NCBI GenBank assembly: GCA_963806155.1
Contig: CAWDXC010000011.1
Coordinates: forward strand, 129,819 to 193,818
Origin: an uncultured Actinomycetes bacterium
GTDB taxonomy: Bacteria > Actinomycetota > Thermoleophilia > RBG-16-64-13
DNA: 64,000 nucleotides
Direction of reading: 5' to 3'
Positions 1,497-23,799 of this stretch are shown here, piece by piece. Both the position numbers and the translations under genes were made by a program. How positions within the stretch are numbered: position 1 is the stretch's first letter; each line of letters opens with the position of its first letter. The notes under the pieces are model-generated. The model worked only from the letters and a program-made list of their open reading frames with translations, made no database searches and was not told the origin of the DNA.

Positions 1497-1515
1497 GAAA
1501 GGAAGCGAGTGGACC

Positions 1516-2991: not shown

Positions 2992-3529
2992 TCGATGCGC
3001 GAGAGGCTCAGGCTGGGGTTTGCGTATGGACAGGCGGATTAGCCGTTCGTGGAACGTCTTCTCACACCGGTTTGGCGTGGAATGTGCATCCCCTTCGCCT
3101 CTTTTGAGCGACGAGCTGATAGCGGAGAGCATCTTCGGCTCCGCTGACTTCCGGTACCGCATCTCGAGCAATAGAGACAGGCGGCAGGAGCTGATTCGCG
3201 CTCACATGCGGCTGATCCTAGCCGCACTCCAGGCACGCAATAAAGGCGGGGATATCGAATCTGACTTCCGACGCCTTGACGGACTCGTCGAGCATTTCGT
3301 CACACACATGCCCCCGTGTCCCCCTTCTCTGCAAGTGCCGTACGGGGAAAGCTGAACTCTGCAGAAACAGCGCGCGCCCACGTACTCGCTCGGTCCAGTG
3401 CTGTGTCATATGATATTACATTTGACACTAGTAACCTAGACGTGGCAGTATTTGAACAGCAACACCCAGGCATGCAGTCGTGTTGGACCTGAGTGATCAA
3501 GCGACATATCGTCGATTCGAGAGGGAGAG

Positions 3530-5056: not shown

Positions 5057-5082
5057 CTTCTTCATCGACTAAGGGAGCCTAG

Positions 5083-5349
5083 ATGGCATACAAGATCAGC
5101 GACGAGTGCGCGATGTGCGGGATGTGCGTGTGGGAGTGCCCGAACAGCGCGATCACTGAGGGCGACATGATCATGGAGATCGATCCGTACAAGTGCACGG
5201 AGTGCGTGGGCTCGAACCCTTCGCCTCGATGCGTGAAGGAATGCCCGAACGACGCCGTGGTGCTTGACCCTGCCCACGAAGAAACCAAGGAGCAGCTGCT
5301 AGCGAAGTGGGAGGGACTTCATCCTGGTGAGACACCAAAGATCTTCTGA
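5083..5349 (+). CDS. 2[4Fe-4S] ferredoxin (YfhL-like)
   Basis: CAMCGMCVWECP and CTECVGSNPSPRCVKECP cluster motifs. RBS AAGGGAG. 88 aa. Paralog of 8705..8986. Confidence 0.8.
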   Translation: MAYKISDECAMCGMCVWECPNSAITEGDMIMEIDPYKCTECVGSNPSPRCVKECPNDAVVLDPAHEETKEQLLAKWEGLHPGETPKIF

Positions 5350-5597
5350 TTCTTCGTAGTCTCAGTTCTCTAAAAGGGGCGGCAGTTGTAGTTTGCACCG
5401 GCTTGGGTGAGGTTTCAGGCGCCCTGTGGGCCGAGGGAACCCCCAACAATTCGGACACCCCGTTTCTCTGGTCTCTGGTCCATCTGCCTCGGGGAAGTGC
5501 CATCTTCTCAGCTGCTTCCTGTCCGCAGGCCGGTGCAAGTAGCCGCCGCGACCTGTCATTGTGCCGAAGAGTGTTGGCGAACCCCAAGGAGATCAGC

Positions 5598-6381
5598 ATG
5601 AGTTCGACTGGCCAACAACTCTATGCGGAACGCGAGAGACGGTTCAATGACATCGTGGCGCTGAAAAGGCCGGACCGGGTTCCCGTGATTCATCTTGTCA
5701 ATCTCTATTTCCCCACGGCGATCAAGGGGATCTCACATCGGGACGCCGGCTACGACCATGAGCTGCGTACAGATGCATGAGGGAAGCGGATCTCGATTTC
5801 GGCTGGGACTTCGCGGTGCCCAACGCGCTCTTCTCCTTCCTGAGCCTGGAGGCCTTCGGCATCAAACAGATCAAATTGCCGGGAGGCGATCTTTCCGAGG
5901 ATTCGCCCTTTCAGTTCGTCGAGGATGAGTAGCTGCGCGAGGACGAGTACGACGCCTTTCTTGGCGACCCGAACGGTTTCACCATGCGAACGATGTTTCC
6001 GCGGCTGGGGGACAAGCTCGCCCGCCTCGGGCAGGTGCCGCTACCCCCGCTGTTCTGGTTCTCCACCTCGTACCACCTGCCAATCGACGGTAGCAACATG
6101 CTTGCCGCTCCGCCGATGCGGAGCGCTCTTCAGGCGCTACTCGACCTGGCTGAGGCAACCAAAGAGAACAACATCGCTCTGGCAGCGCACATTACGGGAT
6201 GGCGACCCTCGACTACCCCTACGGCTTCGGCGTAGCTGGGGCCGCTGCCTTGGACGTGGTCTCGGATTTTTTCCGAGGCCTGCGGGGCGGCAGCCTCGAC
6301 ATCTACAGAAACCCGGCCAAACTCCTCGCGACCATCGAGCTGATGCACCCGTGCAGCACTCGGGCCGCGGCTACTAAGTAA
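5598..6381 (+). pseudogene. Uroporphyrinogen-decarboxylase-family (URO-D/MtaA-like) gene, disrupted
   Basis: Good start (AAGGAG-N7-ATG at 5598) and a URO-D-like N-terminus MSSTGQQLYAERERRFNDIVALKRPDRVPV. The reading frame then passes through three frames with an in-frame TAG near 5928 (…FQFVEDE*LREDEYDAFLGDPNG…). The C-terminal part (…SDFFRGLRGGSLDIYRNP…) is in a third frame. Confidence 0.45.
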
Positions 6382-6580
6382 AATAGGATATGGATTGAAA
6401 AGGCGCAGTAATTAGGATATCTTGGGGGCGACCGCCTGCAGGTCCTAATGGACGTGGCGGGTTCGACGGCCTGTGGCTCGGGCTTCCCGCCTCGACATCG
6501 CATCGCAAAGCGGCGGGCATTGCGAGCGTCAACGCCAGCGTGGATCGCGCAGGACTGACTGAGCAAGGGAGACCGGAATC

Positions 6581-8101
6581 ATGGATCTTACGGCAACAGG
6601 AAAGAGCCCCGACGTGCGGGCAGACGTAGCCATCATAGGCGGCGGGGGCGCCGGCTTGTCAGCCGCCCTCGCCGCCCTCGAGCTGGGCTCTACGTCGGTC
6701 TTGCTGCTCGAGAAGATGCCCTCTCCAGGCGGGAGTACCGTCATGGCTCACGACATCTTCGGTATCGAAAGTCCTGTGCAGAAACGGGCCTGGTTCAATA
6801 CCTCGCGGGACGAGATCTTCAAGACCCACATGGACTGGACCCACTGGACGGTCAATCCTCGGATCGTTCGCGCCTTTGTCGACAAATCGGGCGACACCAT
6901 CGCCTGGCTCGAGACAATGGGGCTCAGCTTCCGGCTTCTGCCCATGTATCCCAACCAGTCGCCACTCATCCGGCATTCGATCGAAGGGCGGGGGATCAAG
7001 CTGGTGAAGGTCCTGCGCGAGAACGCCGAGGGCCGGGGTTTGAAGCTACTCACCCGGACACGGGCCAAGAAGATCCTACGGGCCCAGAGTGGAGAGGTGG
7101 TCGGCGTGCTGGCCGAGACTGCCAACGGTGAGGTGACCATAGGGGCGAAGACGGTCATCATCGCCACGGGCGGCTACGGAGGCAACCGGGAGATGCTCAA
7201 GAAGTATTATCCTCACTACAAAGAGAGCATGACCTATGACCCGCCCCGTAGCAACACCGGGGACGGCATCACTATGGCCATCGAGGCCGGTGCCGACACC
7301 GCCGGTTTGGGCGCCGTGAACCTGCACGGCCCGGCTTTCTTGCCCCGGTCGGCTGCCGACATGATGGAGATCGACGACGTCTTGGACGCCCACGGCAGCC
7401 CGCTGAAGCTGCCCATCATGATCGCGTCGCTGGAGCCCGACACCATCTGGGTGAACAAACTGGGCGAGCGCTTCACCGACGAGGGTCGCATCCTTCAGTT
7501 CTTCGCCTACGGTTACGCCGTAGTCAGGCAGCCCGAAGGCCTTGCCTACACGCTTTACGACAGCGACCTGGTGCAACAAAAGGAGAAGGAGGGCGTCTAC
7601 TGCCAGCCGGCGCCTGGGTGGCACCCGCATGACACGTACTGCGCCCATTTCCCCTTGCCCGGTTTCGAACGGGAGATGCGCAAAGGTAATGACAAGATCA
7701 AGATTGCAGATTCCTGGGACGAGATCGCAGTGTGGATGGGAGCGGATCCCCCCGCGCTCCGAGCCACCGTGAACGAATACAACGTCGCCTGCGATCAGGG
7801 CCACGACCCGGTCTTCAACAAAGACCGTCAGTATCTGCGTCCGCTGCGCACGCCGCCCTTCTACGCGATCGAAGGGCACGCCATGATCGCCGATACCGTT
7901 GGCGGTATCAAGATCAACGAAAAGATGGAAGTCATTGACACCGCGGGCCGCGTCATCCCCGGACTACTCGCGGCCGGCACCACCACCGGAGAGTGGGAGG
8001 CCGAGGCCTACGACTACCACCTGACTGGTCACTTGGTGGGCTTTGCCATCAACTCCGGCCGCATCGCCGGGGAGACCGCCATGGGCTACTTGGCGGGCTA
8101 G
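6581..8101 (+). CDS. FAD-dependent oxidoreductase, paralog of 3530..5056 (~60% identity by eye)
   Basis: DVAIIGGGGAGLSAA motif and the same conserved blocks as 3530..5056. RBS GGGAGACC. 506 aa. Confidence 0.8.
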   Translation: MDLTATGKSPDVRADVAIIGGGGAGLSAALAALELGSTSVLLLEKMPSPGGSTVMAHDIFGIESPVQKRAWFNTSRDEIFKTHMDWTHWTVNPRIVRAFVDKSGDTIAWLETMGLSFRLLPMYPNQSPLIRHSIEGRGIKLVKVLRENAEGRGLKLLTRTRAKKILRAQSGEVVGVLAETANGEVTIGAKTVIIATGGYGGNREMLKKYYPHYKESMTYDPPRSNTGDGITMAIEAGADTAGLGAVNLHGPAFLPRSAADMMEIDDVLDAHGSPLKLPIMIASLEPDTIWVNKLGERFTDEGRILQFFAYGYAVVRQPEGLAYTLYDSDLVQQKEKEGVYCQPAPGWHPHDTYCAHFPLPGFEREMRKGNDKIKIADSWDEIAVWMGADPPALRATVNEYNVACDQGHDPVFNKDRQYLRPLRTPPFYAIEGHAMIADTVGGIKINEKMEVIDTAGRVIPGLLAAGTTTGEWEAEAYDYHLTGHLVGFAINSGRIAGETAMGYLAG

Positions 8102-8157
8102 ACGCGCGAGAACATCACTAGTTAAAGATACTCACATCTGACTCGGGGGTGGTTTGC

Positions 8158-8625
8158 ATGGAGCTCACATATGACAGCATGGTCAAGTTCATGGAGGAGT
8201 ACTTCCCCGTATACAGCGAATACGGCCAGTTTCCAGAGACCGTGAACCGCATGAAGGACTTCTTCGCGCCGGACCTGGAATTCACCGGGTACATGGGCTT
8301 TCCCGAAGGGCTGCTGGTCTACCCGGACCGCAAGTCATTCCTGGACTTCGACATTTCGCATCCCTGGGCTATCGAGAGACTGACTCCTCTCGACATGATG
8401 GTTGACGAGAGACGGAGAATAGTATTCGTGATAATCAAGTTCGAATTCGTGGACACGGAGACGGGAAAGGTCCTGGTCGAGGACCTGGGGGTGACCCAGT
8501 ACCACCTGGCGCTGGACGAAAACGACACCATAAAGATCAAGAAGCTGATCTTCTTCCCACAGCGGCTCGTGCCTGGAGCGAAGACCGGCAGCGACGTCTT
8601 TGGGTTCGATCATCGGCAGGGCTGA
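8158..8625 (+). CDS. Hypothetical small protein, possibly NTF2/SnoaL-like fold
   Basis: ATG at 8158 with RBS GGGGGTGG. 155 aa, no recognisable motifs. Inserted between the flavoprotein and ferredoxin of the second module. Confidence 0.35.
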   Translation: MELTYDSMVKFMEEYFPVYSEYGQFPETVNRMKDFFAPDLEFTGYMGFPEGLLVYPDRKSFLDFDISHPWAIERLTPLDMMVDERRRIVFVIIKFEFVDTETGKVLVEDLGVTQYHLALDENDTIKIKKLIFFPQRLVPGAKTGSDVFGFDHRQG

Positions 8626-8704
8626 CACGCAGACTGGTCGTAACTGTCCCCGGCCTCCTCAGATGAGGCAGGGGCGATCGACTGAGGCAGGAGAGGAACA
8701 AACC

Positions 8705-8986
8705 ATGGCTTACATGATTACCGATGACTGCATAATGTGTGGGCTGTGCGCATGGGAATGCCAGAACGAGGCGATCACTGAGGGTGATGGGAAGTTCGTG
8801 ATCGACCCTGACAGATGCTCGGAGTGCGTGGGCGCTGCGCCCGCACCGAAATGCGTGAACGAGTGCACGACGGGCGCCACCGTCCCAGACCCCTCTCGCC
8901 AGGAGACCCGGGAGCAGCTGCTCGCCAAGTGGCAGGCTCTTCACCCAGGCAAGACTCCGAGGACCTTCAACGGGACAGGGGCATAG
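8705..8986 (+). CDS. 2[4Fe-4S] ferredoxin (YfhL-like), paralog of 5083..5349
   Basis: CIMCGLCAWECQ and CSECVGAAPAPKCVNECT motifs. ATG at 8705 with RBS GGAGAGGAAC. The six-frame ORF 8600..8986 carries an N-terminal extension that lacks an RBS. Confidence 0.8.
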   Translation: MAYMITDDCIMCGLCAWECQNEAITEGDGKFVIDPDRCSECVGAAPAPKCVNECTTGATVPDPSRQETREQLLAKWQALHPGKTPRTFNGTGA

Positions 8987-8990
8987 CCGA

Positions 8991-11615
8991 ATGCCTGAAT
9001 CCAGCGGGCGGCCCCCACGCGAGGCCGGAGAGCAGACCCAGGTTCGCAACATCAGCTGGGTTGGTCCGCCGTCGGGCGCCAACGCCTCCATGGTGGACGT
9101 GAAGGACGGCAAGATCGTCCGCATCCGTCCCGCCCGCTACTACGAGCAGTACACGAGAGAAGAGGTCAAGCCCTGGGTGATGCACGCCCGCGGCCAGACC
9201 TTCGAGCCCAGCAACAAGAGCCTCATCCCGCCACTCAGCCTCGCCTACAAAAAGCGCGTGTTCTCGCCGGGCCGGGTGCGCTATCCGCTCAAGCGCGTCG
9301 ACTTCGATCCCACGGGCGCGCCGGGCTCCACCGGCTCGGGCGGCCGCAATGCCCAGAACCGCGGGGTCAGCAAGTATGAGCGCATCTCCTGGGATAAGGC
9401 GCTCGACATCATCGCCGCCGAGATGCTGCGGGTCAAGAAGACCTACGGGTCGACTGCGATCTTCAGCCAGTCTGACTGCCACGGCGAGACCAAAGTGGTG
9501 CATGGCTCACATGGAGCTATGCGTAAGCTGCTGACGATGTTCGGCGGCTACACCCTTCAGTCCCGCGACCCCGATAGTTGGGAAGGCTGGTGGTGGGGAG
9601 CCAAGCACGTCTGGGGGTGCGAACCGGTCGGACAGCAAATGCCGCAAGTCAATGTGGTTTATGACATAGCCAAGCATACTGAGCTCCTGCTCTTCTGGGG
9701 ATGCGATCAAGAGACCACGCCCTGGGGTTGGGGTGGGCAGTTGCCCAGCCGGCTCAGCTTCTGGTGGACGGACCTTGGCATCAAGCAGATCTACATTGCT
9801 CCTGACCTCAACTATGCTGCCGCTGTCCATGCCGACAAGTGGATCCCCATCCTCCCCAACACCGACGCCGCCCTCTACCTGGCTATCGCGTACGAGTGGT
9901 TCAAGAACGGCACCTACGACAAGGAGTACCTCGAGACCCGCGCCTACGGCGTGGATGAGTTCGAGGACTATGTCATGGGCCGGGAGGACGGCCAGGCCAA
10001 AACGGCCGAATGGGCCGCGCCCATCACCGGGGTGCCGGCCCGCATCATCAAAGCGCTGGCCGCCGAGTGGGCTTTCAAGCGCACGACGGTGGCGATCGGC
10101 AACGGGGGGCCGGGCATCCGCGGCCCCTACGCCACCGAGCCGGCCCGCCTGCAGGCGCTCTGCCTCGCCATGCAGGGTCTGGGCAAACCGGGCTGCCACC
10201 AGGCGAAGATGATTGAGTGGTCCTTGCTCGGTGATCCGGGCAGTCTCTCGTCCCCGAATCCGGTCGTCATGTCCAACATGATGCCCGCCTACCGGGGGAG
10301 TCACCCAGGCGTCACCAATCATCCTTCTTTCATTCCAAAGAGCCTGGTGCCAAAAGCCCTTCTCGAGGGACAGATCGACTGGTATGGGTGCGAGGCTGAG
10401 TTCGCTTCGCGCGAGGACCAGTTCGTTCACTACCAGTACCCGGCAGAAGGCTGCTCAAAAATCCACATGATCTGGACAGACTCACCATCGTGGATCACCT
10501 GCTGGAACTGCGGGAACGATTATGTCAAGGCCGTCCGGACTCCAGATATCGAGTTCATGCTGGCCCAGCATCCCTGGCTGGAGAACGACTGCCTCTTCGC
10601 CGACATCATCCTGCCCGTCAACACCATGATGGAAGAGGACGACATCGGTGACGATGCGTTCAGCGGCCAGGTCAGCCTCGTATTCGCTGCAGATCGGGCG
10701 ATCGAGTCCTTGGGCGAGTCGGTCAGCGACTACGAGGTGGTCTGCAAGATCGCCGAGCGGCTGGGCATGCTGGAGGAATACACGGAAGGGAAGACAGTAT
10801 CCGAGTGGATCAGATTCGGGTATGAGGCGAGTGGCATAGCGGAGCGCGTCAGCTGGGATGAATTCCGGAAGAAGGGTTACTACGCGATTGAAACCGACCC
10901 CGATTGGGAGAAGCGCCCCGCCGGCCTCGTCAAGTTCTACGAAGACCCCGAGAACAACCCGCTCAGCACCCCCACCGGCAAGATTGAGTTCTGCTCGACA
11001 GGTCTGGCTGAGCACTTCCCCAACGACGAGGAGCGGCCCCCGGTGCCCCATTGGATCCCGGAGGGGGTGTCTCACCAGGAGACATTAGGGACCGAGCGCT
11101 CGAAGAAGTATCCTCTACTGGTGATGAGTAACCATCCCCGTTGGGGAGTGCACTCCCAGCACGACGACGTCACCTGGCTCCGGGAGATCGAGACCTGCAA
11201 GGTGAAGGGGCCCGACGGGTACCTGTACCACCCCCTGTGGATGAATCCCGCTGACGCGACGACACGGGGGATCGAGCACGGGGACGTAGTGGCCCTCTTC
11301 AATGAGCGGGGCACCGTCTTGGCCGGGGCCTACCTCACCCAGCGCATCATGCCGGGAGCGGTAGGCATCGACCACGGAGCCAAGTACGATCCCATCGCCG
11401 TCGGGGAGACCGACCGTGGTGGCGCCATCAACACCATCGTGCCCCGCAATGTCACCTCCAAGAACGCCTGCGGCCATGCCGTCTCCGGCTTCTTGGCCGA
11501 GGTAAAGAAGGCCGACCTGGCAGCGCTCAAGGCGAAGTATCCCGAAGCCTTCAGCCGGGAGTGTCACATCACCGCCGGGCCTTGCCTCGCCGGCTTCACC
11601 GAGGGAGGTACCTGA
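8991..11615 (+). CDS. Molybdopterin (bis-MGD) oxidoreductase of the pyrogallol-phloroglucinol transhydroxylase large-subunit (AthL) / resorcinol-hydroxylase family
   Basis: 874 aa. There is no N-terminal Cys cluster, which fits AthL-type enzymes. Long conserved blocks are shared with the paralog at 46433..49012 (HNPDSWEGW.WG, MQGLGKPG, CTNFERWDI, YPL..SPHPR.S.H). The start is 4 nt after the ferredoxin stop, suggesting translational coupling. Confidence 0.8.
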   Translation: MPESSGRPPREAGEQTQVRNISWVGPPSGANASMVDVKDGKIVRIRPARYYEQYTREEVKPWVMHARGQTFEPSNKSLIPPLSLAYKKRVFSPGRVRYPLKRVDFDPTGAPGSTGSGGRNAQNRGVSKYERISWDKALDIIAAEMLRVKKTYGSTAIFSQSDCHGETKVVHGSHGAMRKLLTMFGGYTLQSRDPDSWEGWWWGAKHVWGCEPVGQQMPQVNVVYDIAKHTELLLFWGCDQETTPWGWGGQLPSRLSFWWTDLGIKQIYIAPDLNYAAAVHADKWIPILPNTDAALYLAIAYEWFKNGTYDKEYLETRAYGVDEFEDYVMGREDGQAKTAEWAAPITGVPARIIKALAAEWAFKRTTVAIGNGGPGIRGPYATEPARLQALCLAMQGLGKPGCHQAKMIEWSLLGDPGSLSSPNPVVMSNMMPAYRGSHPGVTNHPSFIPKSLVPKALLEGQIDWYGCEAEFASREDQFVHYQYPAEGCSKIHMIWTDSPSWITCWNCGNDYVKAVRTPDIEFMLAQHPWLENDCLFADIILPVNTMMEEDDIGDDAFSGQVSLVFAADRAIESLGESVSDYEVVCKIAERLGMLEEYTEGKTVSEWIRFGYEASGIAERVSWDEFRKKGYYAIETDPDWEKRPAGLVKFYEDPENNPLSTPTGKIEFCSTGLAEHFPNDEERPPVPHWIPEGVSHQETLGTERSKKYPLLVMSNHPRWGVHSQHDDVTWLREIETCKVKGPDGYLYHPLWMNPADATTRGIEHGDVVALFNERGTVLAGAYLTQRIMPGAVGIDHGAKYDPIAVGETDRGGAINTIVPRNVTSKNACGHAVSGFLAEVKKADLAALKAKYPEAFSRECHITAGPCLAGFTEGGT

Positions 11616-11675
11616 TAGGCAGGGTACTAGTGATCGATCCCGCTATCTGCCACCAGCTGGGAGACGGGACAGAAG

Positions 11676-11843
11676 GTGAGCACCGTGACCGACAACCACG
11701 GAGACTTCTGGCTCACGGGACTGCCCGACATCACTTACACGTTTACGATCGAGAAGGAAGGTTATCCAACCCAGAAGCTAGGACCCCTCGATGCAACCGC
11801 CGCCGATCAGAACGTGGAGGACGTGGAGTTGCGGCACGAGTGA
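11676..11843 (+). CDS. Small ORF or gene fragment encoding a carboxypeptidase-regulatory-like (transthyretin-like) beta-sandwich segment
   Basis: VSTVTDNHGDFWLTGLPDITYTFTIEKEGYPTQKLGPLD matches the TD..G.F.L.GLP.G.Y.L....GY pattern of CarboxypepD_reg domains. Only ~56 codons, possible GTG start, weak RBS. Lies 60 nt downstream of the AthL-like gene. Confidence 0.2.
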   Translation: MSTVTDNHGDFWLTGLPDITYTFTIEKEGYPTQKLGPLDATAADQNVEDVELRHE

Positions 11844-12047
11844 TGGCGGCTGACTAGACACCCCAAGGGTATGGGTTTCTGTGCGTCCGAGGTGAGTGAT
11901 TTGAAATGGCACACGAAAGCGAAAACCACATATGAGCGCTCAGGCGGAGGGGGAAGGAGGTGGGCATAGCCGTCGGCACGCGAAGAATGGCCTGGGCCGT
12001 TGAGGGAAGGCTTGAAGGACGCAGACAAAGGATTGGGGGTAGTTGCT

Positions 12048-13493
12048 ATGGACGAAGAGCGTAGGATATGCAGCAGGCGGGAGTTTCTTCAGCTCGCAGG
12101 TATCGCGGGCGCGAGTTTGGGGCTCGCCGGAGGTTTGGGGGGGGTGCTATCCGCGTGTGGCGGAGAAGAGACGACGACCACGGCCAGTTCCAGTACGGGA
12201 AGTACGGGAGGTGGGACCCAGACGACTGCGGCGGAGAGTACGACCACGTCCGTCAGTGCGACAACTTCGGTGTCCACGTCGGGTGAGGCCGGCCGGACGC
12301 TGAAGATCGGCATGGTTACACCGACCACGGGGGCTCTTGCGCCGTTTGCCCTATACGATGACTGGGCGGTCAAACACCTGGGGGGAGCCCTCAAGGACGG
12401 GTTGGTGTGCGCCGACGGCAAAGTGCGCCAGATCGAAGTCATCAAAAAAGATACCCAATCAGACTCCAACCGGTCGGCCACAATCACCGGCGACCTCATT
12501 CAGAACGACAATGTCGACGTGGTCGTCAGTTCGGGCGCTCCTGACACCACCAGCCCCTCGGCCGACGTAGCCGAGTCCCTGGGTTGTCCGAGCATAAGCT
12601 CGGCCGGACCCTGGCAGGCTTTCTACTTCGACCGCAAGCCACCGGAAGGGGGCTTCAAATGGACCTACGGATTCCTGATCGGGTCGGAGCAGACCATCCT
12701 GAACTTCTCCGTGATGTTCGACCAGGTCCCCAACAATAAAGTAGTAGGTATGTTGCTCCCCAACGATGCCGATGCCCATGGCTGGATGGCCGAAAACGCC
12801 GCCCCGGCTGTATTTAAGGAGAAGGGCTACACCCTGGTCCTGTCTGACTGGTACACGCCGGGAACGGAGGACTTCACCAGCATCATCAGCCTCTTCAAGA
12901 GCGAAGGGTGCGAGATCGTGTGCGGCACCAACACCGCGCCCGATTTCACCAACTTCTGGAAGCAGGCCTACCAACAGGGCTACCAACCCAAGCTCGTCAG
13001 CACCGGTAAGGCCCTCCTCTTTCCGCAAACCTTGGACGCTATAGGCGATATCGCCGACGGTCTTCTGGGCGAAATCGGTTGGGATCGCACGTACCCTTAC
13101 AAAGATTCGCTCACCGGCCAGACATCGGAAGAGCTGTGGCAGGAAATCGAGGCCGACACAGGTATCCAGCCCGGGCCGGCCAGCACGGGCATGTATGCCT
13201 CTCTCGAATGGGTTATAGACGCCTGCAGACGGGCGACGAACCCCGAAGACAAGAACGCATTCATCGAGGCCCTCAAGACCACCAACAACACGTTCGTCTG
13301 CGGCAAGCTCGACATGACCGCGCCTATGGAGCCCGACTGGCATCCCGTCCCTAACGTCTACAAGATGGCGTTCGCCGGAGGCCAATGGCGTCTCTCCAAC
13401 GGCGGCAAATACAAGTTCGAACTGCATGTGTGCGCCGCGGTAACGTGCCCGGGTCTGGAAGTCAAAGACCAGGTCGTGCCTATGGCCTACTAG
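12048..13493 (+). CDS. ABC transporter substrate-binding lipoprotein, Liv/branched-chain-amino-acid-type (Peripla_BP_6-like)
   Basis: Tat-like RREFLQLAG motif and a lipobox LSAC, followed by a Thr/Ser-rich linker. ATG at 12048. The ORF-track start at 12000 is TTG. Confidence 0.8.
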   Translation: MDEERRICSRREFLQLAGIAGASLGLAGGLGGVLSACGGEETTTTASSSTGSTGGGTQTTAAESTTTSVSATTSVSTSGEAGRTLKIGMVTPTTGALAPFALYDDWAVKHLGGALKDGLVCADGKVRQIEVIKKDTQSDSNRSATITGDLIQNDNVDVVVSSGAPDTTSPSADVAESLGCPSISSAGPWQAFYFDRKPPEGGFKWTYGFLIGSEQTILNFSVMFDQVPNNKVVGMLLPNDADAHGWMAENAAPAVFKEKGYTLVLSDWYTPGTEDFTSIISLFKSEGCEIVCGTNTAPDFTNFWKQAYQQGYQPKLVSTGKALLFPQTLDAIGDIADGLLGEIGWDRTYPYKDSLTGQTSEELWQEIEADTGIQPGPASTGMYASLEWVIDACRRATNPEDKNAFIEALKTTNNTFVCGKLDMTAPMEPDWHPVPNVYKMAFAGGQWRLSNGGKYKFELHVCAAVTCPGLEVKDQVVPMAY

Positions 13494-13563
13494 GGTCCGG
13501 GAACAGGCGGGAGCCGAGTGCTGTTGACGCCCCTCGGCAATGGCGTCTTGCTAGCGCTGATAT

Positions 13564-13601
13564 GCCGCCCTCAGCTCCTCTCACGACAGACTGAGGGCGG
13601 C
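13564..13601 (+). terminator. GC-rich hairpin downstream of the binding-protein gene (11-bp stem, 16-nt loop)
   Basis: GCCGCCCTCAG at 13564-13574 pairs with CTGAGGGCGGC at 13591-13601. No U-tract follows. Confidence 0.25.
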
Positions 13602-13966
13602 GCTTGCTGGTCACTAGGGACGTCGAGCCTGTGCGCGGGAGATGCAGCTTGAACCGGCCCACCTGGCGTCTCGGGGTTCATCTCGGCGCTTCCGGTATTC
13701 GAATATACTCTACTGTTTGATACAACGTTCTAGAAACGCTAGTATGAGTAGCATGATTCGGCCCGGCGAGTTGCCAGCACTTCAAGGCGTAGGCGGTGAA
13801 TGGTGCGCCGCTCAGCCCGAGGCGAAAGCTGAGCGGCCGCCGCAGTCGCTGATGGCGATAGGAGGCACCGTCTTTCTAGTCGGGTGGAGGATTCTTCTTC
13901 GCTGACGGTATGGTTGGTCGTGCCGCGACTCGGCCGGCTGGTTCGTAATGTCGCTGAGGTTTGAGA

Positions 13967-14920
13967 ATGGTACGCGTATTAAGTCTGAGGGAACTCGAGA
14001 GAGTGAGCGGCGAGCCACGCTCCACCATCTATTACTACCTCGGCCGTGGCTTGCTTCCCAAGCCACAGAAGACCGCATCTGGCCGCTCGCTCTACTCCGA
14101 GGATCACCTCAACTTGTTGCTCGAGATCGCCGCGTTGAAGAGTTCAGGGCTGTCGCTCTTCGAGATTGAGCGGCATCTGCAGCATAAAGTCACCCGCGTT
14201 GACCAGGCGAGCGTCGACCTAGCCTCACAGGAGCACAAGCGGCTCCACAACCACATTCTTGCCGTAGCAGCCGATGAGTTCTTCACGAAGGGTTACAAAG
14301 GAACGCACGTCAACGACATCATTCATAGACTTGGAATCACCGTTACTGTCTTCTACACCCACTTCCCAAGCAAGCATGCTCTGTTGGGAGAGTGTGTCGT
14401 GGCACTGGTCGATTGGAGCAACGAGTACGTCGAATATCAGCGCCCCCTGATTCACGATTCCATCGATGAACTCCTGTGGTCTCTGTTCGCGCAATTCCGC
14501 GTGTTTCAGCTTGGTTCAGCTGCGCGGGCAGTGCTCGAGGTGGAGGGGCCGAGGAAAGAGGGCAGCCTCCAGCGAAGCCTGGAAGCAGCTCATGCGAGCA
14601 TCGTCGATCGAATCACGAGAGTGGTACGCGAATTCACTGTCGCGCGAGATGGGTCGTCCGAGGTTGCGCCCGAACTCATCGCTGAGATGATTTTTGCCGC
14701 GTCAGACCCACTATTCCGTTTTTCATCACAGGGGCAGGATCGGAGGGCACTCATACAGGCAAACCTCTATGTTATTCTGTCGATCCTTCTCGCCCTCAGC
14801 GGGCGGGCGGACATCGATGCCGAAATGCGGCGCTACGAGAAGTTGGCGGACTATATGTCGGCCCATATGCCTCCTCTGCCGCCGGTCCTCGAATTGCAGG
14901 CGGACTTCTCCAGCTCGTGA
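13967..14920 (+). CDS. Transcriptional regulator with an N-terminal MerR-type HTH fused to a TetR-type HTH and ligand-binding domain
   Basis: Residues 1-70 (LSLRELERVSGEPRSTIYYYLGRGLLPKPQKTASGRSLYSEDHLNLLLEIAALKSSGLSLFEI) fit the MerR consensus. Residues ~85-140 (ILAVAADEFFTKGYKGTHVNDIIHRLGITVTVFYTHFPSKHALL) fit the TetR_N consensus. ATG at 13967 with RBS GAGGT. Confidence 0.75.
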   Translation: MVRVLSLRELERVSGEPRSTIYYYLGRGLLPKPQKTASGRSLYSEDHLNLLLEIAALKSSGLSLFEIERHLQHKVTRVDQASVDLASQEHKRLHNHILAVAADEFFTKGYKGTHVNDIIHRLGITVTVFYTHFPSKHALLGECVVALVDWSNEYVEYQRPLIHDSIDELLWSLFAQFRVFQLGSAARAVLEVEGPRKEGSLQRSLEAAHASIVDRITRVVREFTVARDGSSEVAPELIAEMIFAASDPLFRFSSQGQDRRALIQANLYVILSILLALSGRADIDAEMRRYEKLADYMSAHMPPLPPVLELQADFSSS

Positions 14921-15131
14921 TGAACGATCCCCGGTGCGCCGCGCCTTCGCGCGTCGACACACGGCGCTTCCAACCGCTCGCTCGACCGTGTCGTGCCCAA
15001 AGCGACAAGCCCACATACCATACGGCCTGGTCACATCAAGGCTCTCGATCTATTCCCCCGGTTCGCTGCGTGACGAGGGTGGGGATTGAAGCTCGTTGAA
15101 TCAGAACCGCGAGAGACTAGGAGGGGCCACC

Positions 15132-16352
15132 ATGGATTTATGGCAGGAGATCAACAACCTGAAGATCATCGATGGGCACCTTCACGCCGTCGACCCCTGG
15201 TACTGGATGAAGGCGGTCGGTTCCTACGCGTTTGAGGAGCTGGTGGCGAAACTACCGGTGCCGAACAAGTTCACCACCATCACGCGGACGCGGACCTTGA
15301 TGCGCTGCTACCAGGAGATCTGGGACTTTCCCTACGACGAACTGACCCCGGAGAACGTCGAGGAGCTTGACCGACTCTACACTGAGAGCAGAAAGGACGA
15401 GGCTTCCTATGTGATGAAGGCCTTCGACAAGGCCGGCATCGAAAAGGGACTCCAGGTGTGTCTCAGCAGCCCGGTGCTGCCGCCCGGTTTGGATGCGGAC
15501 CGGTTTGCGAGGGCGCAACTGGTCGACGGCTTCCTGATCCCTCTCGACAACAGCGGCATCGGCTCCACCGTACGCGAGAAACAGTTCGTCAAGATGACCG
15601 AGTACTTTCCCGGCATCATCCGGGAGAGGATGCAGCCTAAGACCTTCGACGACTACCTGGCCATGGTCTCGGCCACTCTGGACGAACTGGCCGGCCAGGG
15701 CGTGGCCGCCCTCAAGATGAACTTCTCCTACTGGCGGGACATCGCGGTCGATGTGGTCGACAAGGAGGACGCGGAAGGCGTCTTCGGCAAGAAGGACAAC
15801 TCTCCCCGGCGCTACAAGGTGCTGCAGGACTACATCTTGCGGCATCTGATCGCCAAGGCCGCGACCCTTGGCCTACCCATCCACATCCACGTGGGGCCGA
15901 CTGGGGTGACCAAGCCGATGGAGACGACTTCACCGGCCCGCTTCGACCCCTTCCTGTGGCTTCCCGATATCAGACCGGCCAAGATCGTACTGCTTCACGG
16001 CTGCTATCCCTACACGCGCGAGGCAGGGTTCATGGTCAGCCGGATGGGGGACGTGCCCAATCTGTACCTGGACGTATCGCTGATGTGGTACTGGGTCCCC
16101 GGCGTGCCGGAAGTACTTGTCCCGATCTTCCGGGATTGGATCCTAGCGGGTCTGGTGCCTCGGATGATCTACGGGAGCGATTCGCCGAGCCTCATCGGCA
16201 TCATGCTGAGCGCGATCAACGCGCGCCACACACTGTACCTGACTCTCCAGGGCTTGGTTGACGAGGGTTCGATAAGTGAAAGCCAGGCGCTCGAGATGGC
16301 GACGGCGATATTTCGGGACAACGCCAAAGCGCTGTACCAAGGAAAGTTGTAG
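15132..16352 (+). CDS. Amidohydrolase-2 (ACMSD/LigW-like metal-dependent TIM-barrel hydrolase/decarboxylase)
   Basis: The IIDGHLHAV metal-binding motif near the N-terminus, HIHVGPTG and a conserved Asp near the C-terminus. ATG at 15132 with RBS AGGAGG. Confidence 0.75.
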   Translation: MDLWQEINNLKIIDGHLHAVDPWYWMKAVGSYAFEELVAKLPVPNKFTTITRTRTLMRCYQEIWDFPYDELTPENVEELDRLYTESRKDEASYVMKAFDKAGIEKGLQVCLSSPVLPPGLDADRFARAQLVDGFLIPLDNSGIGSTVREKQFVKMTEYFPGIIRERMQPKTFDDYLAMVSATLDELAGQGVAALKMNFSYWRDIAVDVVDKEDAEGVFGKKDNSPRRYKVLQDYILRHLIAKAATLGLPIHIHVGPTGVTKPMETTSPARFDPFLWLPDIRPAKIVLLHGCYPYTREAGFMVSRMGDVPNLYLDVSLMWYWVPGVPEVLVPIFRDWILAGLVPRMIYGSDSPSLIGIMLSAINARHTLYLTLQGLVDEGSISESQALEMATAIFRDNAKALYQGKL

Positions 16353-16795: not shown

Positions 16796-16966
16796 ATGGC
16801 GCAAACGTTCACAGTGAGGATCACCGAATCCCAAGGCGAGATCCTGGATCTGCGCTACCGCTTCATCTGGAGCGCGTGGCTCTCCGGCCGGCTCGTGGGC
16901 AAAGGTCATGCCTTCAAACCTGATGAAGCCGTTGCCCGGGCCCAGGAGAAGAGGGACAGCGCGTGA
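16796..16966 (+). CDS. Small hypothetical ORF (56 aa) at the edge of the mobile-element region
   Basis: ATG..TGA open frame, not in the ORF track because it is under 60 aa. Its stop overlaps the start of the next ORF. No homology recognised. Confidence 0.2.
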   Translation: MAQTFTVRITESQGEILDLRYRFIWSAWLSGRLVGKGHAFKPDEAVARAQEKRDSA

Positions 16967-17420
16967 GCGAGACAAGCGCCGCCTTCGGATTCTCCCGTCC
17001 CTCCTTCTATGTGGCGCAGGCTGCCTTCAACGAAGCGGGGCTCCCCGGTCTTGTGCCGGAGCGGCCGGGACCCAGACGGGCGCACAAGCTCTCCGAGAAG
17101 TTGTCGACTTGCTGGAGGAGATCCTCGCCGAAGATGCCTCCTTATCGAGTACGGATCTCGCCCGGCTGCTCGAGGAGCGGCTGGCTCTCAAGGTCCACCC
17201 GCGCAGCATCGAGCGGGCCCTGGCCAGGCGAGCCAAAAAAGGGGCTCCGGGGACGACCCCGAAGATAAGGGCTCCGGCGGCCGAGCTTGCCCAAGGCTAT
17301 GAAGCCCTGCGGGCCCAGGCCCTGGGCGAGCTTCTTCCCTTCACCCCCGGGGATTGGCCGTGTTTCTGGACAGCGGTCTTACCGGCTGGATGTCGGCCTG
17401 CCCGCCCCGGGATCCCCCGA
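16963..17420 (+). pseudogene. Frameshifted helix-turn-helix protein, IS630-like transposase N-terminal HTH type
   Basis: …PERPGPRRAHKL in frame 1 continues as …VVDLLEEILAEDASLSSTDLARLLEERLALKVHPRSIERALARRAKKG in frame 0. No transposase catalytic domain follows. Confidence 0.35.
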
Positions 17421-17481
17421 AGCCGCCGAAGGCAATGATCAGCCGACTCCCCAGCTCGCGCCCCCTCGGCGGCCCGGCCGC

Positions 17482-19694
17482 ATGAGCGCCGAGCTCGTGC
17501 AGCTGCTTGGCCGAGATGGCCCTAACGAGCCAGAGGAGGTCCTCCACGTGAACCCCGAAAAGCATCTTAAGGTGACGGCCGGCCACCTCGAGCGGCGTGC
17601 CTATCTTTACGTCCGCCAGAGCACGCTCCGGCAGGTCCTTGAAAACACGGAGAGCACCAAGCGCCAGTATGCGCTAGGGAACGAGCGATCGCCTTGGGTT
17701 GGCCCCTGAGCGGATCGTGGTCATCGATCGCGATCAGGGGCTCTCCGGGGACAGACAGCGACCGGGAGGGCTTCCAGCAGCTCGTGGCCGCTGTGGGGTT
17801 GGGCGAGGTCGGAGTGGTGCTCGGCCTCGAGGTCTCCCGCCTGGCCCGCAGCTCGTCGGACTGGCACCGGCTGCTTGAGATCTGCGCCCTCACCGACACG
17901 CTCATCCTGGACGAGGACGGCCTCTACGACCCCGCCCATTTCAACGATCGGCTGCTTCTTGGGCTCAAGGGCACCATGTCGGAAGCCGAGCTCCATGTGC
18001 TGCGCGCCCGGCTTATCGGCGGGCAGCGGGCCAAGGCCGCCCGGGGGGAACTTCTGATGAAGCTGCCCGTGGGACTGGTCCACGACGCCGCCGGGCGGGT
18101 CGTTCTCGACCCTGATCTGGCCGTGCAGGAGGCCGTACGCACCTTGTTCGCCACCTTCCGCCGCACCGGTTCGGCCACCGGCACCGTGCGCGCCTTTCGG
18201 AAAGAGGGCCTCCTCTTCCCCCGCCGGCTTTCGACCGGACCAAACAAGGGGGAGATCGCCTGGGGACCGCTCCTCCACAGTCGCGCCCTGAGAGTGCTCA
18301 AGAATCCCCGCTATACGGGCGCCTTCGTATACGGGCGCAGCGAGACCCGACACCGTGCGGGCGGGAAGGAGAGCCGCCGAGCACTGCCTCGGGAAAAGTG
18401 GCACACGGTGATCCTCGGGGCGCATCCCGGATACTTAAGCTGGGAGGAGTACGAGGCGAACCTCGCCCGCCTCCGTGAGAACGCCCAGGCGAACGGCGCC
18501 GAGCGCCGCAAGAGCCCCCCGCGGGAAGGCCCCGCTCTCCTTCAGGGCCTCGTCGTTTGCGGCCGCTGTGGCGGGCGCATGACCGTCCGCTATTACGTGA
18601 GCCACGGCCAAGTCGTTCCCGAGTACGTCTGCCAGCGGGAGGGGATTGAGAAGGCGGAGCCTTTCTGCCAGCGCCTGGTCGGGGCGCGCAATCGACCAGG
18701 CGGTGGGGGAACTCCTCGTCGAGACGGTGACCCCGCTTGCCCTGGAGGTGGCTCTCGCCGTACAGGAGGAACTTGAAGCCCGCGCCCGCGAGGCCGACGA
18801 CTTGCGCCGAAAGCAGGTGGAACGAGCCCGCTACGAGGCCGAACTCGCTCAGCGCCGCTATCTCCTCGTCAGTCCCGAGAATCGCCTGGTGGCCGACTCC
18901 CTGGAGGCGGACTGGAACCGCAAGCTCGGGCCTTGGCTGAGGCCGAGGCCAACTACGAGCGCCGGCGGGAGGCTGACGGTGGTGTCTTGAGCGGCGAGGA
19001 CCGATCGCAGATCCTCAGCCTTGCCGCCGACTTTCCCCGTCTGTGGCGGGATCCCGCTGTGTCACAACGAGAGCGCAAGCGCATGCTGCGTCTCCTGGTG
19101 GAGGACGTCACCCTCGTGCGGGCCGAGGAGGTTCTCGTCCAGGTGCGCTTTCGGGGCGGGGCCACCGAGTGCCTGCACCTGCCGCTCCCCCTAAATGCGG
19201 CCCAGTTGCGCAAGGTCGATCGGGCCGTGGTGGCCGAGATCGATCGACTCCTTGACGAGCATACCGACGCCGAGATCGTCGACATCCTAAATGCTCGGGG
19301 TCTGCGGCCCGGAGTGGCCGACCGCTTCAGCCTCCGGATCCTCTACCGCCTCCGGCGCACCTACGGCTTAGAGGACCGCTACACCCGCCTGCGCCGCCAA
19401 GGACTACTCACGCTCACGGAGATGGCCACGCTCCTCGGCGTCACCCCCTGCACAGTCAAGATCTGGGCCCGGGAGGGCCACATCCCCTCCCAGGTCTACA
19501 ATGACAAAGGCCAGCGGCTCTATGAGCGCTCGGCCAGCCTCCAGCAGTCCTGCCAGTGGTGTGGCCGCCCCATACCTGCCGTGCCCTCGCTCCGCCGGGG
19601 CAAGAAGTGGTGCAGCCAGCGCTGCTTGCTCCAGGCCTATAACAGCCGGAAACGAGCGGCGAGACAGGGCGCCCGGCAGGAGAAGGTGGCATGA
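17482..19694 (+). pseudogene. Large serine recombinase (resolvase/invertase catalytic domain + recombinase domain + zinc-ribbon/coiled-coil), multiply frameshifted
   Basis: Catalytic N-terminus …RRAYLYVRQSTLRQ… is in frame 1. It is followed by …ERIVVIDRDQGLSG… and …GFQQLVAAVGLGEVGVVLGLEVSRLARS… in other frames. The recombinase domain (17694..18776 frame), the coiled-coil segment (18646..) and the C-terminal RLWRDP…RERKRMLRLLVEDVTL motif (18933..19694) are each in a different frame, giving four or more frameshifts. Confidence 0.7.
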
Positions 19695-19744
19695 ACAGCG
19701 AGGATTTCATGTCGGATGTGCTGAACGAGGAGCAGTCAGATGCG

Positions 19745-20562
19745 CAAGCCTTGGCTTTCGGAGAGCGTATCGGGGTGTAGATGACGCGCACTCCCTCCGT
19801 GCGAAACACCTCGTCGAAAGGTCCCGAGTACTTGGCGTCGCGGTCATGGATCACGAACTGGACCTGAGCCAATCGATCTTCTATGGCCAAGTTGCGAGCC
19901 TGCTGGGTGACCCAGGAAGAATCGGGATGGGCACTGACCCCGGCCAGGTGCGCCTTGCGGGTCAAGAGCTCGATGAAGAAAAGGACGTAGATCGTCTTTG
20001 ACCAGACGGTCTCTACGCAGAAGAAGTCGGACGCCAGGATGCCGGCCGCCTGCTGAGTCAAGAACTCCCTCCACGAAGGGCCGACTCGTCGCGGAGAAGG
20101 CGGGAGACCGTGACGGCGAAGCAGTAGGCAGATGGCGGTTGCCGAAACTGAGACGCCCAGCTTCCTTAGCTCACCCTGGAGGCGCCGGTAGCCCCAGCGG
20201 GGGTTCTCCCGAGCGAGCCGCAGGACGAGCGTCGCCACCTCCTCCGAGATTCTCGGTCGACCCGGCCGGCGTCTACCTCGGTAGGTCCGCTTGCGTCCTA
20301 CCAGCTCACGGTGCCAGCGCAGCACGGTGTGTGGCGAAACCGGCAGACATCGCCACAGTTCACGCGGCAGGAGCTGGCTTGCTGCCGCCAGCAGGATCCG
20401 ATCCCCACGCCGTAGTCCCAGCCGACGACCTCGTGAGAGAACGCGCAACTGGTGACGCAAGACCAGGATCTCAATGTCGCGAGCAGCACCGTCACGATCG
20501 CTGCCTAGGGTGAGAACACGCAGAAGCCGACGGAGGGCAAAGTAGAAAAGCGACAGTAGCAT
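19745..20562 (-). pseudogene. DDE (rve) transposase, C-terminally truncated
   Basis: The ORF-track frame continues to 19456, but the residues after …RSPKA are unrelated read-through that overlaps the serine recombinase remnant. Confidence 0.65.
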
Positions 20563-20651
20563 CCGGACTCCAGGATGAAGAGGTGGCTGGAAGCCGTAAT
20601 CCTAGCGGATGCCGGCGCCAATACGAGCAGGTACAGAGTTTATGGACCCCT
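19745..20651 (-). mobile_element. Truncated IS copy (rve/DDE integrase-core transposase family, IS481/IS3-like); 3' part missing
   Basis: The transposase N-terminus MLLSLFYFALRRLLRVL…DRDGAARDIEILVLRHQL… and the DDE core up to …VIYTPIRSPKA are present. Homology stops near 19745, before the expected C-terminal NAxxERxxRTxxxE block. The ~90 nt beyond the ATG (20563-20651) are shared with the other copies and define the IS end. Confidence 0.65.
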
Positions 20652-22758: not shown

Positions 22759-23799
22759 ATGGTCATAGATATCAACATGCACGCCTTGCCCGCCGACCTT
22801 TTCGATGACGAAGAGAGGTTGGAGTCGTACCTCCGCATCGCCCCTCAAGGACACGGCGAACACGCGAGGCTCTCGACCGTGCCGGAAACCGGCAAGAAGC
22901 AGATCGTCGTCGAGAAGCCCCGCGGGTACGAGAATCTCAACTTCGGCTACAACAACGTCGATTCGCGGGCCAGGATCGAGGTCATGGACAGGGCCGGGCT
23001 GGACAAGGCCATCCTGCGTACGCCCTGCTGGCACGAATGGTTGACGCTCGAGATGTGCCGGCAGGTGAACGACAGCATGGCCGGGTATGTAGCTGAATAC
23101 CCGGACAGGCTGTGCGCGCTTGGCACGGTGCCGCCGTGGGGCGACAAGGGCTGCCTGCGGGAGCTCGAGCGCTGCATCGGCGACCTGGGTTTTGTCGGAA
23201 TGGAGGTCTCCGCCCACTACGGCAGCCTCTATCTGGACGACACGGCCTTTCGGCCGTACTTCAAAGTGCTGAACGAGCTCGATGTGCCGGTGGTGGTCCA
23301 TCACACTCCTCTGCCGGTGGAGTACGGCAGCCTCTTCGAATACACGAATCTGCGTCGCTCGATCGGACGGTGCATCGACCAGATGACCGCGGTGGGCAGG
23401 GAGCTGTTCAGCGGGCTGTTCGAGGAATGTCCGAATCTCAAGCTCGTTCACACCATGCTCGGCGGCGGCATGTTCGCCCTCACTGAACAGATACTGCCGA
23501 GGAGATCGCAGGTGCAGGAGGAGATCCAGAGGTTCAGCTCGGAGGTCCCCCGGTTCAAAGACTACTTCCGAAGGAATCTCTACTTCGATATCACCACGCC
23601 CCTCGCGTGGAGCAAGGCCCAACTCGAGTGCGCGGTCAAGGAGCTGGGAGCGGACCATATCCTATACGGCAGCAGCTACCCGGTGAGGTTGGACTGGGTC
23701 CTCAATGGGGTGGAGCACGTCAAGAGTCTCGACCTCACCAACCAGGAGAAGGACCTGATCTTTTCGGGGAACGCGAGAAGGCTTTTCAAGATCAACTAA
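22759..23799 (+). CDS. Amidohydrolase-2 (ACMSD-family decarboxylase/hydrolase)
   Basis: 346 aa, ATG at 22759. Conserved blocks with predicted metal ligands are present (e.g. VVHHTP and a C-terminal Asp). Lies between IS remnants 2 and 3. Confidence 0.75.
   Translation: MVIDINMHALPADLFDDEERLESYLRIAPQGHGEHARLSTVPETGKKQIVVEKPRGYENLNFGYNNVDSRARIEVMDRAGLDKAILRTPCWHEWLTLEMCRQVNDSMAGYVAEYPDRLCALGTVPPWGDKGCLRELERCIGDLGFVGMEVSAHYGSLYLDDTAFRPYFKVLNELDVPVVVHHTPLPVEYGSLFEYTNLRRSIGRCIDQMTAVGRELFSGLFEECPNLKLVHTMLGGGMFALTEQILPRRSQVQEEIQRFSSEVPRFKDYFRRNLYFDITTPLAWSKAQLECAVKELGADHILYGSSYPVRLDWVLNGVEHVKSLDLTNQEKDLIFSGNARRLFKIN

Follow-up and report, generated by a model that had tools for sequence, protein, structure and literature searches.

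A MerR-type winged helix joined to a complete TetR-type regulator: a conserved single-chain family and its representative in an uncultured actinomycete

Introduction

Among bacterial one-component regulators, the TetR and MerR families rank with the largest and best understood, and a textbook mechanism exists for each of them. Here, we describe a protein that carries the DNA-binding domains of both on a single chain. It is encoded at positions 13967 to 14920 of a 64,000-nucleotide stretch of DNA from an uncultured Actinomycetes bacterium (Actinomycetota; Thermoleophilia; RBG-16-64-13), namely positions 129,819 to 193,818 of contig CAWDXC010000011.1 (assembly GCA_963806155.1). In the following, we refer to this whole stretch as the window and to the protein as the MerR-TetR fusion. 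It is a one-component regulator made of two textbook domains in an uncharacterised combination.

TetR-family regulators (TFRs), such as FasR (6o6o/6o6p), the CprB/ArpA-type gamma-butyrolactone receptors (1ui5, 4pxi), AvaR1, QacR and KstR2, share a three-helix helix-turn-helix (HTH; PF00440) and a helical ligand-binding and dimerisation domain. Residues ~90-300 of the fusion have the same fold, and the logic is likely shared as well, that is, a dimer which is released by its ligand and governs adjacent catabolic genes. However, the DNA-binding domain of TFRs normally lies at the extreme N-terminus, whereas in the fusion a complete MerR-type winged helix-turn-helix (wHTH) and a linker (residues 1-96) come first. 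No solved TFR has a MerR wHTH ahead of its HTH, as judged by Foldseek against the PDB.

Members of the MerR family, for instance MerR (4ua1), CueR (1q05), PbrR (5gpe), MtaN and BmrR, possess an α5 dimerisation helix and a C-terminal effector site, act on target promoters with a 19-20-bp spacer and carry an arginine in the ‘LRYY’ motif of the recognition helix. The N-terminal wHTH of the fusion aligns to residues ~3-69 of MerR and CueR, but the α5 helix and the effector site are both lacking, no promoter of this kind was found at the locus, and the canonical arginine is replaced by tyrosine or histidine throughout the fusion family.

BldC of Streptomyces is a MerR-like wHTH that binds DNA without a coiled coil or an effector domain; it is a free-standing protein of 68 residues, which multimerises head-to-tail on direct repeats (PMC5859096). 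The MerR head of the fusion likewise has neither coiled coil nor effector domain, but is covalently tethered to a TetR repressor within a chain of 317 residues, whereas BldC stands alone. BldC is a precedent for a MerR head that works outside the classical MerR dimer. Mce3R of Mycobacterium tuberculosis, a TFR whose chain holds more than one HTH, binds an asymmetric, non-palindromic operator (9b7y; PMC11667970). It has two TetR HTHs and no MerR domain, whereas the window protein combines one TetR unit with one MerR wHTH. Finally, two proteins of Desulforhabdus amnigena (P0206 and P0216) have the same two-domain layout as the window protein according to precomputed PF13411 and PF00440 assignments. 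Over residues 5-144, they share ~30-35% identity with it; their linker is basic and longer, and their genes adjoin a beta-oxidation-type operon.

Results

One reading frame, two classes of DNA-binding domain

A preliminary description of the locus, made from its sequence alone, had proposed a single polypeptide with a MerR-type HTH, a TetR-type HTH and a TetR-like ligand-binding region. This layout holds: the gene is one continuous open reading frame (ORF), and Pfam assigns both HTH classes, each above its gathering score. The parts of the gene are as follows.

13967..14920, + strand: coding sequence of the MerR-TetR fusion, 317 residues and a stop codon
13982..14185, + strand: MerR-type wHTH, residues 6-73 (Pfam, PDB matches, secondary structure of the AlphaFold2 model, alignment)
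14186..14254, + strand: junction, residues 74-96 (helix limits of the AlphaFold2 model, invariant residues)
14255..14392, + strand: TetR_N HTH, residues 97-142 (Pfam, PDB matches to the TetR family)
14393..14866, + strand: all-helical TetR-type ligand-binding and dimerisation domain, residues 143-300 (helices of the AlphaFold2 model, Foldseek)
14867..14893, + strand: C-terminal proline motif MPPLPPVLE, residues 301-309 (invariant in the close subfamily)

The ATG at 13967 is the start that yields 317 residues, and the homologues begin at the same M-V/I-R/Q-V; their alignment sets in here and not at an alternative TTG at 13961. A likely ribosome-binding site, GAGG, lies at 13956-13959. In the Pfam search (hmmscan), MerR_1 (PF13411) matches residues 6-73 with 50.6 bits (cut-off 21.6, E 2e-13) and TetR_N (PF00440) residues 97-142 with 45.6 bits (cut-off 24, E 5.9e-12). 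The strings given for the MerR part in the preliminary description, SLYSEDHL...LKSSGLSLFEI, are found in the translation. Sequence searches of the PDB divide the protein in the same way, with MerR (4ua1), CueR and PbrR matching residues 7-71 and TetR-family chains matching residues ~88-190. The recognition helix of the MerR head reads RSTIYYYLGR and its wing GLLPKPQKTASGRSLY, and the recognition helix region of TetR_N is GITVTVFYTHFPSK.

An AlphaFold2 model built on 14 homologues (predicted local distance difference test, pLDDT, 84; predicted template modelling score, pTM, 0.73) places a winged helix at the N-terminus, with helices at 7-14, 18-26, 45-59 and 64-80 and the wing at 33-44. After a break at 81-84, an extended helix (85-112) opens the TetR fold, and the conserved VDLxxQEHxRxH arm of the junction leads directly into TetR helix α1. 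The C-terminal two thirds form a TetR fold of nine or ten helices, with a pLDDT of mostly 85-90 for the helices between 136 and 299. Against the PDB, Foldseek matched this part to TFRs only (FasR, CprB, AvaR1, QacR, KstR2 and EthR2), with target-normalised template modelling scores of 0.5-0.76 over at most ~240 aligned columns, and returned no solved chain that spans both the MerR and the TetR part. Likewise, all matches in NCBIfam were to individual equivalogs of MerR or TetR type and fell below threshold, so that the fusion as a whole has no curated family.

A conserved family in at least two phyla

In a word-indexed search, 14 full-length proteins (310-335 residues, 44-100% identity) were retrieved from among 5.8 billion; all of them have both Pfam domains and align co-linearly from the first to the last residue. 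The MerR head is invariant at R18, T20, I21, Y24, L29-P31, P33-T36, R40 and Y43, the junction at D84, L85, Q88, E89, R92 and H94, and the TetR HTH at G123-T125, V128-Y130, H132, F133, S135 and K136; the C-terminal motif MPPxPP is likewise invariant among the 14. The identical protein is also encoded in an independent assembly of run ERR12037368, where it is again followed by an Amidohydro_2 gene. A missed stop or frameshift, against which the preliminary description had cautioned, was not found, as the single ORF is retained in this assembly and in 13 homologues with 44-81% identity.

With a profile of the 14 sequences, we exhaustively searched 1.84 billion cluster representatives, 466 of which matched at E<=1e-10 and 68 at E<=1e-30. 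Among the best 150, many of them fragments, 125 have a Pfam match to TetR_N and 118 one to MerR_1, and sub-profiles of the two halves place both modules in at least 108. In species-representative genomes, the Actinomycetota members come from uncultured Gaiellales and Thermoleophilia known from metagenome-assembled genomes (MAGs), and their genomes or loci often carry several fusion paralogs. Members at ~30-35% identity occur in the Desulfobacterota (Desulfobacula, Desulfosarcina, Desulfatitalea and Desulfomonilaceae). A search that started from one of these retrieved 361 clusters at E<=1e-10. Both domains are present in nearly all of them, and the two paralogs of the cultured D. amnigena are included. 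The architecture therefore recurs in hundreds of clusters and at least two phyla. The earlier statement that it is rare is correct in so far as these proteins make up a small fraction of TetR proteins, but they constitute a real family; judged from sequence, the fusion is uncommon compared with the huge TetR family, yet an established and widespread architecture. At NCBI and JGI, such proteins are currently named ‘MerR family’, ‘TetR family’ or ‘AcrR family’ regulators. Our literature searches found no paper or functional study on a MerR-TetR fusion, and the family appears so far unstudied.

The family also includes variants. Single chains of the type MerR-TetR-TetR (456-551 residues) are found in seven divergent clusters (P0016, P0018, P0073, P0076, P0084, P0096 and P0097). 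A model of one of them (pLDDT 80.6, pTM 0.74) has the double-TetR repressor Mce3R as its best PDB match (9b7y, E 1.6e-8, 442 columns). Furthermore, there are TetR-only relatives that share the N-terminal VDL arm.

Apparent MerR-TetR-MerR-TetR proteins of 526-587 residues (P0058, P0062 and P0067) may be real or may be read-throughs of tandem paralogs such as those in the related loci L013, L031 and L042. The MerR subtype, TIxYYxxxGLLPxPQKT, also heads TetR-less proteins of ~240 residues in Dehalococcoidia, Nitrospinae and other MAGs (L045 5947-6660, L046 5680-6417 and L047 6001-6762), in which a second MerR-like HTH seems present, judged by eye only. The same motif is found in PDB entry 2dg6, a chain of 222 residues deposited as ‘putative transcriptional regulator’.

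An autonomous TetR core with an added MerR head

Between two Actinomycetota subgroups, identity is 66% in TetR_N, the most conserved long segment of the protein, 58% in the MerR wHTH, 54% in the linker and 33% in the ligand domain. Such a gradient is usual where DNA-binding domains are conserved and the sensor diverges. Since the two heads retain 58-66% identity where the ligand domain retains 33%, both are under selection; on the evidence of these alignments, both domains are intact and under comparable purifying selection.

The MerR part ends where a classical MerR protein would continue into its dimerisation helix. The alignment with Bacillus MerR (4ua1) covers residues 7-69 of the latter and stops there, leaving its 63-residue coiled coil and metal site unmatched, and both this alignment and the AlphaFold2 model are devoid of an α5 coiled coil. 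The effector-binding region at the end of α5 is absent as well, with a complete TetR unit in its place. Only 23 residues separate MerR_1 from TetR_N, and half of them belong to the N-terminal arm of TetR α1. As TetR-only relatives keep the VDL arm, this arm is part of the TetR unit, to which the MerR head has been added. The TetR unit is accordingly the autonomous core, and a TetR (pseudo)dimer with one MerR head is viable, as the modelled MerR-TetR-TetR chains show.

Conserved boxes upstream of the Desulfobacterota members

At 11 Desulfobacterota loci, a conserved operon runs divergently from the fusion gene; its products are a thiolase-like protein, a fusion of ChsH2-type and enoyl-CoA hydratase parts and an acyl-CoA dehydrogenase, with an additional AMP-ligase in L052. 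The intergenic regions of 250-350 bp (about 5640-6000 in L032-L044 and 4374-5000 in L052) are otherwise divergent, yet contain a fixed set of common elements, including four boxes. Palindromic boxes of the form TCTAyAG(A/T) have 28 matches in 4.0 kb of intergenic sequence, while the flanking 119 kb contain 17. The boxes of the proximal pair are always 15 nt apart and lie just upstream of the ribosome-binding site of the regulator (11/11 loci). The distal pair, usually 34 or 39-40 nt apart, encloses an inner AATGAn...TCnTT palindrome and overlaps promoters of the type TTGACA-N17-TAGTCT; in most loci, ~150 nt lie between the proximal and the distal pair. A GAAC-N3-5-GTTC palindrome is conserved too. 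Outer boxes around an inner palindrome are the pattern expected for the composite operator of a TetR dimer with extra heads pointing outwards. In L052, the module appears duplicated.

The operator search in the window and other Actinomycetota

Around the window gene, the following elements were considered.

13494..13966, + strand: upstream intergenic region of the regulator, 473 nt
13564-13601: hairpin that follows the gene of a solute-binding protein
13705-13720: 16-mer ATACTCTACTGTTTGA, which resembles the Desulfobacterota box
13717-13745: sigma-70-like promoter TTGATA-17-TAGTAT, the only one upstream, with the imperfect palindrome AACGTTCTAGAAACGCT in its spacer
13909-13914: TATGGT, a -10-like element of the form TANNNT
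15084..15102: palindrome GATTGAAgctcgTTGAATC, a candidate operator only, 30 nt upstream of the ATG (15132) of the downstream Amidohydro_2 gene

The preliminary description had suggested looking for MerR-type promoters with 19/20-bp spacing and for TetR palindromes. A crude consensus scan, which assumes sigma-70-type promoters, found no 19/20-spaced promoter on the + strand of 13494-13990 or 14900-15140, and the only site upstream of the regulator has a 17-nt spacer. The search for palindromes brought up only candidates, each of which occurs once in the window; GATTGAAgctcgTTGAATC, moreover, is statistically indistinguishable from chance. The site at 13705-13720 differs from the 16-mer box at two positions and is one of two such sites in the 64 kb, which makes it a weak lead only.

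Comparative searches gave a similar picture. Footprinting of the upstream regions of the closest orthologs (the window, L001, L048, L049 and L050) revealed no conserved palindrome in sequences that are barely alignable. The search for motifs common to the window’s own intergenic regions returned 35 pairs where 28 were expected, and the search for repeated boxes within upstream regions had no power even on the Desulfobacterota positive control. The long upstream region has no match to an Rfam family, and its RNA-folding z-scores are -1.4 and -1.75.

Several candidates were rejected. The top k-mers from 30 upstream regions, TGGTTCG and CTACCGG, are conserved coding sequence of upstream genes or scattered, and the recurrent palindromes from an exact-arm census across all related loci are coding-derived or terminator hairpins. 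The palindrome GATGGGC-N11-GCCCATC falls within the gene of a flavin adenine dinucleotide (FAD) oxidase. The perfect palindrome GGATGC-N6-GCATCC (L002 5682; L007, L008, L017 and L029 6275; L011 5875) lies inside regulator genes, where it represents the codons for a conserved RMHNRIL at the domain junction.

The window contains far fewer CTAG tetranucleotides than its base composition predicts (72 against ~228), and the upstream intergenic region (13440-13790) contains the CTAG-densest 300 nt of the 64 kb, with five sites, a number reached by only 0.08% of 300-nt windows. The surroundings of the promoter-like site at 13717-13745 are locally AT-rich.

Genomic context of the fusion gene

The genes from 228 to 16352 all lie on the + strand.

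228-1496, + strand: CCG-domain protein
1516-2991, + strand: FAD_binding_4 protein
3092..3358, + strand: relic of a second, paralogous fusion regulator, last ~85 residues, including HMPPCPPSLQ (tblastn, synteny)
3530-5349 and 6581-8986, + strand: two modules of FAD_binding_2 protein and ferredoxin
8991..11615, + strand: molybdopterin oxidoreductase, homolog of the pyrogallol hydroxytransferase large subunit (Pfam; PDB 4v4c, E 1e-138)
11676-11843, + strand: CarboxypepD_reg fragment
12000..13493, + strand: solute-binding protein, Peripla_BP_6, directly upstream of the regulator (Pfam; recurrent neighbour)
15132..16352, + strand: Amidohydro_2 protein, directly downstream of the regulator (Pfam)
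17694-18776: serine recombinase
18933-19694: ORF with a MerR/HTH_17-type domain
19456-20562, - strand: transposase-like HTH protein
22759-23799, + strand: second Amidohydro_2 protein

The transporter binding-protein gene described upstream of the regulator is indeed a Peripla_BP_6 gene. By contrast, a phenolic-acid decarboxylase downstream is unproven: the gene product belongs to Amidohydro_2, with a weak match to the uncharacterised hydrolase 2qpx as its only solved relative, and the gene does not recur beside the regulator in related loci. Other associations recur among related Actinomycetota loci: the regulator is found with the CCG and FAD_binding_4 genes in eight loci, with an AhtL-like molybdenum enzyme in six and with a solute-binding protein in at least seven. 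From this synteny, the regulator is most likely a pathway-specific switch of the oxidoreductase/transhydroxylase cluster.

The molybdopterin oxidoreductase is homologous to the large subunit of 4v4c over its full length. It is followed only by a CarboxypepD_reg fragment of 55 residues (profile positions 31-81 of 82), whereas a related metagenomic locus encodes a small subunit of 278 residues with Fer4_11 and CarboxypepD_reg; the iron-sulfur part of the beta subunit thus seems to be missing or frameshifted in the window. The two paralogous flavoprotein modules each begin with a FAD_binding_2 flavoprotein of ~507 residues, after which come a small 4Fe-4S ferredoxin and small ORFs without annotation; a long minus-strand ORF at 3497-5065 is a shadow of the first module.

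The relic at 3092-3358 was detected with tblastn (regulator residues 233-310 against 3104-3337, 40% identity, E 1e-13). It directly follows the CCG and FAD_binding_4 genes, in the position where intact copies are found in L001, L006 and L028, and is probably a deletion pseudogene.

The region ~16900-20600, with the recombinase and the transposase-like protein, has a G+C content of 66-70%, compared with 58-62% in the cluster, and is probably a mobile element inserted beside it. A few kb past this element, the second Amidohydro_2 protein scores better than the first (106 bits), and the catabolic cluster may continue there.

Discussion

Our best reading is that the fusion is a TetR-type regulator with an accessory MerR winged helix, not a MerR activator with a TetR sensor. 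In this protein, a MerR winged helix that lacks a dimerisation helix of its own is attached to the N-terminus of TetR α1. We propose the following mechanism. Dimerisation via the C-terminal helices of the TetR unit would give a four-headed dimer with two TetR HTHs and two MerR wHTHs, whose TetR pair would bind a central operator. Because the N-terminus of TetR α1 lies at the outer, DNA-facing edge of the dimer, each MerR head would be placed to touch flanking DNA, and thereby a composite or multi-box operator could be read with higher specificity or avidity. A small-molecule ligand in the TetR pocket would release the protein from DNA. The targets would be the genes for the molybdenum enzyme, the FAD/CCG and FAD/ferredoxin oxidoreductases and the solute-binding protein, and probably the regulator’s own gene. 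As the ligand, we would expect a substrate or an intermediate of the pathway encoded by the cluster, possibly a polyphenol.

We give this reading as a whole, that is, a ligand-responsive dimer of the TetR type with an accessory MerR head, a composite or multi-box operator and the local catabolic cluster as its target, a probability of about 0.5. Within it, the window protein probably reads a composite operator. The dual operator recognition considered in the preliminary description is hence plausible and the best hypothesis, but unproven. More tentatively, the dimer and its two MerR heads may use two recognition codes, one for a central palindrome and one for flanking boxes, and might bridge box clusters ~150 bp apart. 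If true, this would be a mode of operator recognition that has not been described for either the TetR or the MerR family.

Several observations weigh against this proposal. No binding site of the window protein was identified. The candidate palindromes occur only once in the window, and the regions upstream of 34 Actinomycetota fusion genes contain no common palindrome or motif. The MerR recognition helix is nearly identical in both branches, which is why we tried to transfer the Desulfobacterota box to the Actinomycetota loci, but its position weight matrix is not enriched there (one match in 10.4 kb). We only infer that the Desulfobacterota boxes are read by the fusion protein, and the same holds for any assignment of single boxes to one of its heads. 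With tyrosine or histidine in place of the canonical arginine, the MerR head may read DNA in an atypical manner. Finally, the best NCBIfam match is to the ScbR/ArpA gamma-butyrolactone receptor family (NF041196), with 46.4 bits at a cut-off of 150.

Some of these points suit an alternative that we consider rather unlikely, although it is the likeliest of the three alternatives: the TetR unit would do all sequence-specific reading, and the MerR-like domain would be a non-specific clamp, an oligomerisation or bridging module, or an interface for a protein partner such as RNA polymerase or another protein. TetR-only relatives with the same N-terminal arm and the replaced arginine are consistent with this. 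So is the failed transfer of the box, since a MerR helix that is nearly identical across the branches, next to a TetR helix that differs, fits a head that does not set operator specificity. Two operator clusters ~150 bp apart in the Desulfobacterota would also suit a bridging function. However, the positions that contact DNA in MerR proteins (R18, T20, Y24, K35, R40 and Y43) are invariant in the fusion, the MerR domain is as conserved as the TetR HTH, and the Desulfobacterota intergenic regions contain several distinct types of conserved box, all of which would argue for a head that reads DNA.

A second alternative, which is improbable, is that the fusion works as a canonical MerR activator, in which the TetR unit only senses and dimerises, and ligand binding twists the DNA of a sub-optimally spaced promoter. 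The preliminary description had considered such a twist-activation module on a TetR sensor. Like that of all MerR proteins, the wHTH of the fusion is N-terminal, and the sole promoter-like site upstream of the gene has a palindrome in its spacer. Furthermore, other MerR regulators carry diverse C-terminal sensor domains. Yet the antiparallel α5 coiled coil, which sets the geometry of the wHTHs for twisting, is missing, and the spacer of this site is 17 nt long, with no 19-20-spaced site on the relevant strand; together, this makes canonical twist activation unlikely. In a mere sensor scaffold, the TetR HTH should decay, but it is intact and the best conserved part of the protein. Likewise, classical MerR activation relies on a symmetric geometry of two heads, which the MerR-TetR-TetR relatives, with a single MerR head on two TetR units, cannot provide. 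Lastly, an artefact in which adjacent MerR and TetR genes were joined, be it through an error in sequencing or assembly or through a recent frameshift, is already refuted by the comparative data, namely the invariant junction and shared ORF of the 13 homologues, the identical protein from an independent assembly and more than 100 divergent clusters with the same architecture.

A conserved family in which a DNA-binding head precedes a complete regulator poses the question of how two unlike HTHs in one chain split the recognition of an operator. For this, the Desulfobacterota intergenic layout is a ready test case, and the window protein is the Actinomycetota representative with a link to polyphenol catabolism. 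The answer also matters for annotation, as the labels ‘MerR family’ and ‘TetR family’ predict opposite logic, a DNA-distorting activator in one case and a ligand-released repressor in the other. In synthetic biology, a four-headed ligand-responsive repressor could give longer and more specific operators. Locally, in these uncultured Actinomycetota, the fusion regulator is likely to switch a catabolic cluster that includes a pyrogallol-transhydroxylase-like enzyme.

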